A program made the position numbers. Of a DNA stretch of 13,028 bases, positions 9,001 through 12,000 are shown piece after piece. Origin of the DNA: a virus (taxonomy: Duplodnaviria; Heunggongvirae; Uroviricota; Caudoviricetes); IMG/VR virus record IMGVR_UViG_2734482780_000013, positions 1 to 13,028 of that record; one strand, written 5' to 3'. Each line of letters opens with the position of its first letter. Position 1 is the stretch's first letter.

Positions 9001-12000
9001 GCTGTTTAGAATCTTGCCAATGGCTTGGTTGTCATCACTTTTGGCTATAGTTGTAATATTGTATTATACAGGGCTTCCATCTGATTTTATTCAGAAGTAT
9101 CAGAACTATTTGTATTGGTTTGACGGTGGGTTTACGAATATAAGACCAGATATAAACGGGATGATTAACTCAAGATATGTAACTGCTGGAGTTACATGGA
9201 CTCTTGTGTGGGAGTGGGGGTTTTATTTCATTCTTCCTTTGCTTTACTTATTTAGAGAAAAATCGTTAGAGTTCATCTCAGCCATTACTTTTTTATCCAT
9301 GTATTTTGTACCATCATTTTTCCCAGATGCCAAAGCAAACTTATGGGCGGCTTTTTGTTTTGGTATGTTGGTGAAAGAAATAACATTGCTGGTGAAAATA
9401 ACAAAATTGCAATCAGAAATTTTGTTGGTTGCATCAATATTAAGCATTATTATACTTTCACCAGGCACTCTTAGCACAAAGCTCATATTTGTTTCAGCGA
9501 TAGGTTTCTTTGCTGTATGCTCAGGTGCCGATCTATTTGGTCTATTTAGAACCAAGGGATTTATAAGGCTTGGAGAGGCTAGTTACAGTATATATCTACT
9601 TCAGGGGGTGATTTTTTATGTCGCTTTTAAAGTAATGAAAGAAAACAACCTTCCTATGAGTGGTGGTATTTTTTATCTTCAGCTAACTATTGTCTTTATA
9701 TTTCTTTGTGTTGTGTCATGTTTAACCTTCCATTTTTTTGAAAGGTATTTTATTAACATTGCAGCAAACAAACATAATTAATATGATGGCGCTCAATGCG
9801 CCATCTTTTTATTGTTATCCCTAAACCACCTCCTGGGGAGGTAGTCTTTTGCTTGATTAACTTTAATCCATATATGGTTTATTGTGTATGATAAACTCAC
9901 CAACTAAGGAGGGTCTTATGCACATTAAACGGTGGTTTTTATGTCAGCTCAGCTAACAGATGGGGCTTTAAATCAGTGGCTTAGTATGAGTTCTCTTGCT
10001 GCGGTTATCGTAGGCGTTCCGCCAGAGGTTGCGCTCGGTGCTTTGTCAGGAGCGGTGATTTTTGTTACCTCTGCTGTCGAGTATCCGATCCGCCGCCGGG
10101 TGCTCCTGTCTATTCTCAGCTTTCTTTGCGGCCTTCTCTTTTACAAACCAGCAGCATCGATTCTTATCGGCATAGCCAGCCTGATCCCTACCATCACACA
10201 GGACTCTTTCGAGAAAGGGATCGTCTTTTCTGCAGGAGCATTCGTATCGGCGATTGTCGCTGTACGTATTGGTATATGGCTCTACCATCGTTCAGATAAT
10301 CCACGTGAGTTAATTCCGGGGAGAAAAGACAATGGTAACTCATGAGCTTTTTTTGCTTATTGCCAATGCGATTATTTGTTCGGGAATAGCAATTCGCGTT
10401 GTCACATTCCGGCGTAATGGCTCTCAACACCGAAGATGGGGGGGCTGGCTTGCTTATTTCCTTATTGTTGCTGCGGCCAGTATTCCTGTTCGTGTCGTCT
10501 ATGCAATCTGGTTATGCACGCCAATGGCTGTGGATTTACCTGAGGTCATTATCAACGCTGTTATGCTTGCTGCTGTTATTAAAACACGCGGTAACGTTGT
10601 TCAGATTTTCAAAATATCGAGGTCTAAACATGGAGATTAAACAATTCCAGCGAGCTGCTGGTATCAGCGAGGCGCTGGCCGCACGCTGGTTCTTGCATAT
10701 AACTTCTGCGATGAAAGAGTTTGGTATCAGCAACCCCGAAGATCAGGCAATGTTTATTGCTATGGTCGGGCATGAGTCTGGAGGCTTCACCCGGTTGCAG
10801 GAGAATTTCAACTACAGCGTTACCGGGCTGGCCAACTTCGTTCGTGCTGGGCGTCTCACCCAAGGGCAGGCTAATGCATTGGGACGCCGTGCTGGTGAAC
10901 CACCATTGCCACTTGAGCGACAGCGCGCGATCGCAAATCTGGTGTATAGCAAACGCATGGGGAACAATGCTCCCGGTGATGGTTGGAATTACCGTGGGCG
11001 CGGACTTATCCAGATTACCGGTTTGAATAACTATCGTGACTGCGGAAACGGCCTGAAAGTGGACCTGCTGGAGAATCCTGAGCTGTTGACGCAAGACGAA
11101 TACGCGGCTCGTAGCGCGGCGTGGTTCTTCTCCAGCAAAGGCTGCATGAAGTATCCCGGCGATATTGCACGTGTAACTTTGATTATCAATGGTGGCAGGA
11201 ATGGCATCGACGACCGGCGCACGCGGTACGTCACTGCCAGTAAGGTGCTGGCGGCATGATCTGGGCATTCGTAAAAGCATACCGGAAACAGTTGATTATC
11301 ATGGCGGTGCTTGCTGTTCTGGTCATATCAGGAGTTGTTGCCTGGAATGTACACGGCAGTCGTCAGTACGACGCCGGGTATGCGCAGGCGAAAGAAGACC
11401 GCAAAACCGAAGATGAGAGAGTTCGTCATCACTACGAACAGGAGAAAGCGATCAATGAACGTGAAGCGCAGCAGAGGATCGACCAGGCGCGCAATGATGC
11501 TCTTGATGCTGCCGCTCGCGCTGGCCGGTTGCAGCAACAGCTCGTTGCCATCCGTGAGCAGCTCAGGCAGTATAACGCCATTGTCGGCGCTGGGACGTCA
11601 GCCGCAGACACCGGAGTTTTGCTTGCCGACGTGCTCAGTAAATCTCTCGAGAGAAACAGACAACTGGCAGAGTATGCTGACAGGGCTGTCGAAGCCGGAA
11701 GAGTCTGCGAAAAACAGTACGACACCCTGACCAGATAGCATGGCATTTTTCATGGTACTGATTTTCGGTGACGGTATATAAAACGGTACGGGAAAAATTT
11801 GGTTTTGGAAAAATGTTATCACTCAATTGGTTATGATTGTCGTAAATAATTGAGTGGGAATGATTTTAATCCCTGCACTATGAATGAACAAAACCCTCTG
11901 TTACTACAGAGGGTTTTTTATCTTCAAGAATCATAGGCTTGAAGTTACTAACATCGATTAATTAAACCAGCTGTCCGATTTGTTCTCTTCTGCTTTGCCC

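Follow-up and report, generated by a model that had tools for sequence, protein, structure and literature searches.

We analysed a stretch of 13,028 nt of the IMG/VR virus record IMGVR_UViG_2734482780_000013 (called the window here), which is a defective epsilon15-like (Uetakevirus) prophage. At the start of its lysis cassette, a Shine-Dalgarno (SD) sequence precedes a 12-codon open reading frame (ORF), called the mini-ORF, that overlaps the beginning of a gene of a holin family in another frame. The start codon, SD sequence and stop codon of the mini-ORF are conserved in related phages and prophages, and its start and SD sequence are masked by a long hairpin that is maintained by covariation. 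We favour, with a probability of roughly 0.4, the reading that the mini-ORF is a normally masked leader ORF which, once unmasked, would feed ribosomes to the holin start by termination-reinitiation. We infer from this arrangement that the mini-ORF may be translated, that an unmasking step would come first and that the effect on holin synthesis would be positive. Judged by the homologues, the element looks like gated translational control for lysis, not like a sequencing error.

Two closely spaced starts at the head of the lysis cassette

The sites at the 5′ end of the cassette are the following:

9907..9912, + strand: SD1, AGGAGG, followed by the spacer GTCTT (5 nt) and ATG 9918
9918..9956, + strand: mini-ORF of 12 codons encoding MHIKRWFLCQLS, with its TAA at 9954-9956
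9931..9935, + strand: SD2 (GGTGG), belonging to the 134-aa gene and located at the hairpin's foot
9936..9940, + strand: run of five T (T5) between the two starts, not a conserved feature
9941..10345, + strand: lysis gene 1, coding for a 134-aa membrane protein of a holin family (Phage_holin_8, PHROG 198)

The mini-ORF reads ATG CAC ATT AAA CGG TGG TTT TTA TGT CAG CTC AGC TAA. Its ATG lies 23 nt upstream of ATG 9941 and is thus out of frame with the latter, which opens a 134-codon ORF ending at 10345; the mini-ORF and the holin-family gene overlap by 16 nt in different frames. The positions of AGGAGG, ATG 9918, TAA, the T5 run and ATG 9941 given in an earlier, sequence-only reading of the window were exact to the base. 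That reading called GGTGG the weaker SD sequence, which it is, but only moderately so: pairing with the 3′ end of 16S rRNA gives −12.6 kcal/mol for SD1 and −8.7 kcal/mol for SD2, the latter using the CACC/AUC part. Of the two, SD1 is the stronger in 109 of 118 leaders of the sample described below.

The window contains the pattern AGGAGG-N4-9-ATG three times, where 0.35 occurrences would be expected. Among the 54 annotated starts tested over the whole genome of phiV10, only this gene has an upstream ATG with a strong SD sequence within 45 nt. A second AGGAGG-N5-ATG of the window, at 12461-12474 (+ strand), lies on the strand opposite to a yfgI-like gene; no ORF of at least 40 codons follows it, and it is probably a chance occurrence.

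The 134-aa protein matches Pfam Phage_holin_8 (PF16931) with an E-value of 1.6e-10 and 41.6 bits, against a curated cut-off of 26.4, and PHROG 198 'holin' with an E-value of 9e-40. By these profiles its gene falls into the phage holin families, and its holin activity is putative. The start equivalent to 9941 is the one annotated in SPN1S, phiV10, epsilon15, Tyrion and the RefSeq Escherichia coli entries, and the mini-ORF is unannotated in every public record of the gene.

Conservation of the upstream start and its reading frame

We assembled 185 loci from IMG/VR, GTDB genomes and GenBank phages, corresponding to 120 distinct leaders from at least 10 enterobacterial genera. A scan of genome contigs gave nine loci; more distant Phage_holin_8 members lie outside the sample. 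An SD sequence and an upstream ATG are present in 118 of the 120 distinct leaders, at −23 (108 leaders) or −22 (10 leaders) from the holin-family ATG, and the offset between the two ATGs is 25 nt in BP9. In the comparison of reading frames among homologous lysis cassettes, which the sequence-only reading had suggested, the upstream ATG was in frame with the holin gene in none of the leaders.

The mini-ORF has exactly 12 codons in 104 of the 120 leaders, with the same stop position at +13..+15 (TAA in 83, TGA in 21). Shorter forms exist: the two phiV10-type leaders have six codons, with a UAA two nucleotides before the holin AUG (UAA-UU-AUG), L154 has a 7-codon mini-ORF with a UAAUG junction, and in L045 the mini-ORF is reduced to ATG-TGA, i.e. 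a single residue. Stop positions among the leaders thus comprise the usual +13, UAAUG, UAA-NN-AUG and +20, and the encoded peptides range from 1 to 14 residues. In nine further genera, with holin identities down to 63%, the −23 ATG and the 12 codons are found in all cases; the genera that keep the mini-ORF include Citrobacter, Klebsiella, Kluyvera, Scandinavium, Pseudocitrobacter, Erwinia, Pseudescherichia and Buttiauxella. The leader of the window recurs unchanged in an independent assembly, L008.

The block between the two ATGs, ATGCAYANTAAACGGTGGT, is almost invariant, including at third codon positions, while one second codon position is free; thus, the constraint bears on the nucleotides rather than on the peptide. 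The T5 run is absent from most leaders, and positions −4 to −1 are highly variable (mostly TCACT, TTGCT and TCATC). Depletion of stop codons in this variable linker (−5..−1) is uninformative, since base composition alone predicts few stops there.

Two side observations concern individual leaders. A C-to-T change in CGGTGG at −12 (L014, L036, L007, L166, L187 and others) creates an in-frame ATG 12 nt upstream of the holin start (ATGGTG...). The BP9 annotation begins at this −12 ATG, which has no SD sequence at a usable distance, and yields a 138-aa protein; the same ATG probably also accounts for the 138-aa protein entries in databases. In L094 (Candidatus Erwinia dacicola; 492-600), the holin gene has a premature stop after seven codons (MSHSLTT*), and the hairpin and mini-ORF are intact (94.9 bits with the covariance model described below).

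A long hairpin masks the upstream start

The RefSeq record of epsilon15 (NC_004775.2) carries an in silico annotation, 'protein_bind, RNaseIII, mRNA processing', at −69..−7 of the holin-family gene. This annotation led to the detection of a long hairpin enclosing SD1 and ATG 9918, which the sequence-only reading had overlooked. In the window it spans 9877-9930:

9877..9901, + strand: 5′ arm, GGUUUAUUGUGUAUGAUAAACUCACC, whose CUCACC is an internal anti-SD sequence
9902..9907, + strand: loop, AACUAA, near-invariant in the leader alignment
9908..9930, + strand: 3′ arm, with most of SD1, ATG 9918 and mini-ORF codons 2-4

The start codon (hereafter AUG1, the holin start being AUG2) is fully engaged in the window, with the pairs A9918-U9889, U9919-A9888 and G9920-U9887. 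In SD1 and just after it, G9908/G9909 pair with C9901/C9900 and G9911-G9913 with C9898-C9896. The window fold comprises 20 bp in four segments and three weak basal pairs (−21.9 kcal/mol, z −4.1), and stem length is ~20-24 bp among the leaders. The epsilon15 leader forms a near-perfect hairpin of 22+2 bp (−33 kcal/mol, z −8.4), and the mean minimum free energy over 124 distinct leaders is −28.8 kcal/mol.

A covariance model built on 18 leaders matches 92 further or distinct leaders, with 32-100 bits for the + strand versus 22-31 bits for the − strand; the window match covers 9870-9938 (72.6 bits). Both the G-U pairs and the model scores favour a structure of the + strand. In the model alignment, which was fitted to the model's own structure so that the counts lean towards it, 91.9% of the cells are paired versus 30-56% with the partners slid, and double changes occur at nine pairs, in 28 cells versus 8.3 ± 2.5 in shuffles (a value reached by 0 of 500 shuffles). 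A G/A polymorphism of SD1 covaries with C/U in its CUCACC partner (model pair 30-52), and AUG1 never covaries although the adjacent stem pairs do.

Partition-function folds gave AUG1 a probability of 0.00-0.02 of being unpaired in the full leader (0.00 in the window) and of 0.3-0.7 when the 5′ arm was removed. In contrast, SD2 and AUG2 are about half open whether the stem is present or absent; the mean unpaired probability of SD2 is 0.33, and its GUG (9932-9934) may pair weakly with UAU 9873-9875. In these folds, the specific thermodynamic effect of the stem is thus to lock the upstream start.

As expected of an RNase III processing hairpin, the transcribed strand offers at least 20 bp (about two turns) of double-stranded RNA, and the structure is kept by compensatory changes. 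The hairpin is a putative RNase III site, as the epsilon15 record has it. The other 'RNaseIII' features of epsilon15, at 26753-26789, 26874-26912 and 28297-28335, fold at 0, −12.9 and −10.1 kcal/mol, respectively, and a fifth one at 2720-2819 gives an interrupted structure of −25.2 kcal/mol over 100 nt. Of the five, only the lysis-leader stem is convincing as a long duplex by predicted folding.

RNAalifold returned no structure for an alignment that began at −55 and so left out the 5′ arm, which makes this result a false negative. Rfam 15 has no match over 9866-9960, and three matches upstream (9747-9861) have E-values above 0.5 and lie far under the gathering score. A search of the phiV10 genome for a trans-acting partner or a second copy of either hairpin arm found only the site itself. 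A conserved block, GGTTTATTGTGTATGAT, had first been taken for a promoter on account of its −10-like TATGAT, an assignment superseded by the hairpin.

The mini-ORF stop is conserved inside the holin gene

The usual stop of the mini-ORF lies 13 nt inside the holin-family gene, outside the stem. Where it is kept, codon 5 of the holin gene is only CTA, TTA, CTG, ATG, ATA or GTA, each of which produces TAA or TGA when read in the frame of the mini-ORF. Elsewhere in these genes, 53% of the Leu codons are CTT or CTC, neither of which ever occurs at codon 5. The sole codon 5 that does not yield a stop is ACA in L045, whose mini-ORF already ends at codon 2. Codon 10, which has the same xTN-A context, carries C or T at its third position in 16% of the distinct sequences, versus 0 of 137 for codon 5, and synonymous sites elsewhere in the holin gene are near saturation. 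The skew at codon 5 is moderate evidence, drawn from the comparison of related genes, that selection sees the mini-ORF reading frame.

Two RNA interactions were considered for the purine-only third position, namely pairing of holin codons 4-6 with codons 14-15 in a 5-bp helix, GCUAA/UUAGC, and an interaction of the loop CUAAG with CUUAG of codons 14-15. Both were dropped, as there was neither a consensus structure nor covariation. Separately, synonymous constraint is strong at 9971-9985 of the window (codons 11-15, AAT CAG TGG CTT AGT): codons 11 and 14 have the same third base in 135-136 of the 137 distinct genes, and no consensus structure or covariation accounts for it.

Natural variants of the leader

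A few leaders lack the upstream start. One viable phage and 72 complete E. coli genomes carry the ZX5-type leader. Its hairpin has a lower stem with compensatory changes and a replaced upper part, SD1 and AUG1 are lost, and a canonical AGGAG stands before the holin ATG where the other leaders have GGTGG. L047 has ATA instead of the upstream ATG; L041 and L042 have no upstream ATG, and the stem of L041 is degenerate. With the exception of the ZX5 type, L047 and L041/L042, all diverged stem families have a canonical SD sequence 5-8 nt before the AUG. In this set of leaders, the stem is thus found more widely than the mini-ORF, and where the mini-ORF has been lost SD2 is stronger, in what amounts to one evolutionary event.

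A masked leader ORF and its alternatives

Since SD1 and its ATG lie in a conserved hairpin, the mini-ORF is not expected to be translated constitutively. In the intact leader, CUCACC and a UAU triplet of the 5′ arm would pair with SD1 and AUG 9918 and block initiation there, and ribosomes would be limited to SD2 and AUG 9941 at the foot of the stem. Unmasking would consist in removal of the 5′ arm or a cut in the stem, for which RNase III or a transcript beginning inside the stem are candidates. SD1 and AUG1 would then become the principal ribosome entry site; ribosomes would read the 12 codons over SD2 and AUG 9941, terminate 13 nt into the gene and reinitiate at AUG 9941. This would be the same coupling as implied at the three other overlapping junctions of the cassette, and the act of translation, rather than the peptide, would be what counts.

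The masked leader ORF explains why the stop is conserved, why the AUG stays invariant while its neighbours covary, why diverged stems retain an SD sequence and why SD2 is weak in some leaders and strong in others. The mini-ORF has its own SD sequence directly upstream of the main gene and a conserved stop that overlaps or lies near the main start, as coupled leader ORFs do, and the shorter variants (UAA-UU-AUG in phiV10, UAAUG in L154) terminate closer to the holin AUG, which counts in favour of coupling. The sequence-only reading had proposed a leader peptide coupled to holin expression. The conserved start, SD sequence and stop and the overlaps at the other three cassette junctions support the coupling part of that proposal, which has the best support among the functional readings; it must be substantially amended, since burial of the start in a hairpin would prevent constitutive translation, and the peptide is not conserved.

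Several observations weigh against the masked leader ORF. AUG1 and SD1 are deeply buried in a highly stable stem, and the route of unmasking is hypothetical: a mid-stem cut by RNase III would land near AUG1 and take SD1 away, and a sigma-70 promoter scan of 9600-10400 predicted none, including within the stem. Conservation inside the mini-ORF is at the nucleotide level, for which the stem alone suffices as an explanation, and the peptide is not conserved; the −22 clade (group B) even encodes an unrelated 14-residue peptide, MHINGGKHVSSTNQ, in the other frame. The ZX5 type retains a hairpin without any mini-ORF. Finally, the stop-codon argument draws on related sequences, and holin codons 11-15 likewise show synonymous constraint without explanation.

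A more specific version of the masked leader ORF is an RNase III-operated switch, in which a mid-stem cut within a few nucleotides of AUG 9918 would give a leaderless or near-leaderless mini-ORF mRNA that passes ribosomes to the holin-family gene; lysis onset and timing would then be tied, genus-wide, to the RNase III activity and growth state of the host. We consider this version improbable.

Nearly equal in standing to the masked leader ORF is the possibility, itself tentative, that the mini-ORF is a by-product of the stem. The hairpin would be an RNase III site, an mRNA stabilizer or a steric brake, SD1 and AUG1 would be mere 3′-arm sequence that never initiates, and the 134-aa gene would be translated only from SD2 and AUG 9941. 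AUG1 is indeed paired with a probability of ~1, conservation of both arms at the nucleotide level accounts for the invariant ATGCAYANTAAAC, and the 3′ arm would stay purine-rich under transitions alone. The ZX5 type, common in E. coli, keeps the hairpin without SD1 and AUG1, the epsilon15 record already labels the stem as an RNase III site, the lambda N leader reportedly offers a precedent with its RNase III hairpin beside the N ribosome-binding site (RBS), and no unmasking step is required. However, this explanation leaves aside the conserved stop 13 nt inside the holin gene and outside the stem. Nor does it predict that AUG1 is invariant while neighbouring stem pairs covary, that a canonical SD sequence precedes the AUG in all diverged stem families other than those listed above, or that SD2 is non-canonical exactly where the mini-ORF is present; moreover, removal of the stem is predicted to alter the accessibility of SD2 and AUG2 little.

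It is unlikely that the upstream site acts as a decoy. An accessible SD1/AUG1 would compete with SD2/AUG2, and ribosomes on the mini-ORF would occlude the holin start and lower or delay synthesis, making the site a non-coding analogue of the S107 start of lambda, which the sdi stem-loop gates. The two RBSs are 23 nt apart, too near for simultaneous occupancy, SD1 is the stronger one in 109 of the 118 leaders, and the stem masks the upstream start only, as lambda sdi is said to do. Nevertheless, a stem of −22 to −41 kcal/mol would keep the decoy permanently off, a decoy does not need a conserved stop by the holin AUG, and the shorter variants end in the classic coupling junctions UAAUG and UAA-NN-AUG.

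A functional basic peptide of 12 residues (MHxKRW...), for instance an arrest peptide or a small regulator, is very improbable: the first six residues are alike in most leaders, but this likeness is at the nucleotide level (stem and SD2) and the most variable site is a second codon position, group B encodes an unrelated sequence, and phiV10 and L045 encode only six residues and one, respectively.

The last alternative, to which we give next to no credence, is that ATG 9918 and the holin frame are connected, either through a sequencing error within the T5 run or by programmed frameshifting, so that the true protein would start at 9918 and be an antiholin-like isoform extended at its N terminus: one added T or a −1 shift would fuse MHIKRWF, whose extra residues are basic, to that frame, but the spacings of 23 (108 leaders), 22 (10) and 25 nt (one) are never in frame, the L008 assembly is identical, most leaders lack the T run, the phiV10 mini-ORF stops after six codons, and the ZX5 type has only the 9941-equivalent start, with a canonical SD sequence. 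The homologue spacing and the identical independent assembly refute it as a general explanation, and with it both the disturbed dual-start holin/antiholin arrangement and the T-tract sequencing error raised by the sequence-only reading; programmed −1 frameshifting on G-GUU-UUU-A was rejected, as the run is not conserved.

Comparison with known systems

The lambda S gene reportedly has a dual-start motif in which the sdi stem-loop sequesters the SD sequence of the first start and sets the partition of ribosomes (Blasi et al., 1989). The two systems share a pair of close starts where a holin gene begins, together with a stem-loop upstream that hides the first SD sequence. In lambda, however, the starts are in frame (antiholin S107, holin S105), whereas the upstream start in Uetakevirus is out of frame (offsets of 23, 22 and 25 nt) and opens an ORF of 1-14 residues; it is thus not a dual start of the lambda type. 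In addition, the Uetakevirus stem is far longer and more stable than sdi.

A hairpin processed by RNase III is said to be present in the lambda N leader (Kameyama et al., 1991), and the R sites of T7 are RNase III processing hairpins. As in Uetakevirus, a long stem lies immediately upstream of the RBS of a phage gene. In contrast, those sites do not have a complete SD-AUG-ORF in their 3′ arm; cleavage is putative in Uetakevirus, and accessibility of SD2 is predicted to be barely stem-dependent. Fold-back inhibition has reportedly been described for IS10 and IS50 (Davis, Simons and Kleckner, 1985). There as here, an inverted repeat folds read-through transcripts and hides an RBS, and transcripts begun inside the repeat lack the 5′ arm and are translatable. 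Unlike in those elements, no promoter was found in the Uetakevirus stem, and an upstream operator suggests that the normal transcript includes the whole stem.

In hok/mok/sok of plasmid R1 and other type I toxin mRNAs, a small membrane toxin is likewise translated via an overlapping leader ORF, mok (PMC8309996). The RBS of that leader ORF is inactive by mRNA folding until processing, in which RNase III is involved (PMC8309996). The Uetakevirus element differs in that no antisense RNA was found, a local hairpin replaces the 5′-3′ fold-back, the SD sequence of the main gene is exposed and the setting is a phage lysis cassette, known here from sequence alone.

Coupling by itself has precedents: in the RNA phages MS2, fr and GA, ribosomes terminate at a nearby stop in an overlapping frame and scan back to the lysis start (PMC12548453, PMC9955659), and both post-termination scanning back to a start 38-50 nt upstream and ribosome-delivering upstream ORFs (uORFs) are documented (PMC12548453). 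In those phages the upstream ORF is the coat protein gene, the genomes are RNA, and the overlaps are 38-50 nt versus 16 nt here. Bicistronic-design (BCD) couplers combine a strong SD1 with a short leader ORF in which SD2 is embedded and whose stop overlaps or abuts the main start (PMC6302717). This architecture, shared with R1 tap-repA, is that of the Uetakevirus leaders, and the UAAUG junction is reproduced exactly in L154; BCD leaders are open by design, whereas the Uetakevirus SD1 is locked in a stem and the stop is usually 13 nt inside the main gene. By analogy, the element would work most like mok-hok and BCD couplers combined with a stem resembling that of lambda sdi or of the N leader.

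Transcription and regulatory sites upstream of the leader

In epsilon15 (L191), an unannotated repressor-operator-like site, TTTACCATATGGGTAAT (consensus ATTACC-N5-GGTAAT), lies at 24703-24719, ~30-40 nt upstream of the stem. The sequence 'GGTAATTT' is found at a fixed distance upstream of most leaders, ~38 nt before a palindrome in many loci (e.g. L001-L004). The operator and this upstream sequence suggest that the lysis promoter is repressor-controlled, with a transcript spanning the whole stem. The window itself has no lysis-leader operator; the acyltransferase gene and its terminator occupy the region up to ~9860, and homology to other Uetakevirus leaders starts only at ~9859-9866.

The palindrome is of the type AACC-N6-GGTT and has the following copy at the leader:

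9866..9879: ATCCATATATGGTT, whose right end (half) overlaps the foot of the hairpin

In the window, the pattern occurs at 9866-9879 (9869) and 5686-5700 (5690). It was also found in epsilon15 (L191) at 2988, 19940, 24751, 33752 and 35953, and in phiV10 (L185) at 3308, 20542, 20921, 24739, 33135 and 35116, with a perfect AACCATATATGGTT at 24737-24750. The copies lie 8 to ~40 nt downstream of repressor operators, mostly before rightward operons; from this placement, the palindrome may be the site of a second regulator or a promoter-proximal element.

The lysis cassette and the prophage

The region has its matches in temperate podoviruses of the epsilon15 type (Uetakevirus: epsilon15, phiV10, SPN1S, Tyrion and others), as well as in many E. 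coli prophages. Apart from lysis gene 1, the main features around the leader are these:

6069-8573: tailspike
8645-9781: acyltransferase, directly upstream of the lysis region
9785..9812, + strand: Rho-independent terminator of the acyltransferase gene, with an 8-bp GC-rich stem and then a T run
10332..10640, + strand: 102-aa holin (Phage_holin_3_7), whose start overlaps the preceding gene by 14 nt
10630..11259, + strand: GH19 endolysin, whose start overlaps the preceding gene by 11 nt
11256..11738, + strand: Rz-like i-spanin (DUF2514), with a 4 nt ATGA overlap with the endolysin stop

The cassette thus has four genes, and all three internal junctions overlap (14, 11 and 4 nt). Downstream of the acyltransferase terminator and ahead of the leader lies a perfect inverted repeat, ACCTCC-TGG-GGAGGT (9828-9842), which is present as a single copy in the window and had a weak score as a second terminator.

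The prophage is a deletion derivative. Window positions 1-6068 encode an MT-A70 methylase, a DndB-like protein, RecT, a YqaJ exonuclease and a helix-turn-helix repressor (4642-5226, minus strand), with operators at 4507, 4569, 5281, 5329 and 5666; the tailspike comes almost directly after these. Replication genes, head genes and an integrase are absent from the window, and the lysis cassette adjoins host yfgI/yfgH-like genes (DUF5384, glycine-zipper) at 11958-13028.

Significance for lysis control in Uetakevirus

What is already known of the element is the stem, annotated in silico in one GenBank record. The literature searched on holin regulation in phiV10, SPN1S and epsilon15, on uORFs before holins and on RNase III and holins does not describe the element; it contains no account of a mini-ORF within the stem, of its genus-wide conservation or of the conserved stop. 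For annotation, extension of the protein to the upstream ATG must be avoided, and an RNA feature is warranted for the stem. The region is also used in phiV10 and SPN1S phages engineered as reporters or for biocontrol, which its behaviour therefore affects.

Among the major fitness traits of phages is the timing of lysis, which is known to be set by the dosage of holin and, in lambdoid phages, by dual-start antiholins. A whole genus, including epsilon15, phiV10, SPN1S and hundreds of enterobacterial prophages, has a different conserved 5′ control region, in which a long hairpin keeps a strong RBS and a mini-ORF locked. Provided that the mini-ORF is used, the region would represent a gated coupler of the hok/mok or BCD kind in the lysis cassette of double-stranded DNA phages, and a natural design that silences a lethal membrane protein until an RNA-processing event.

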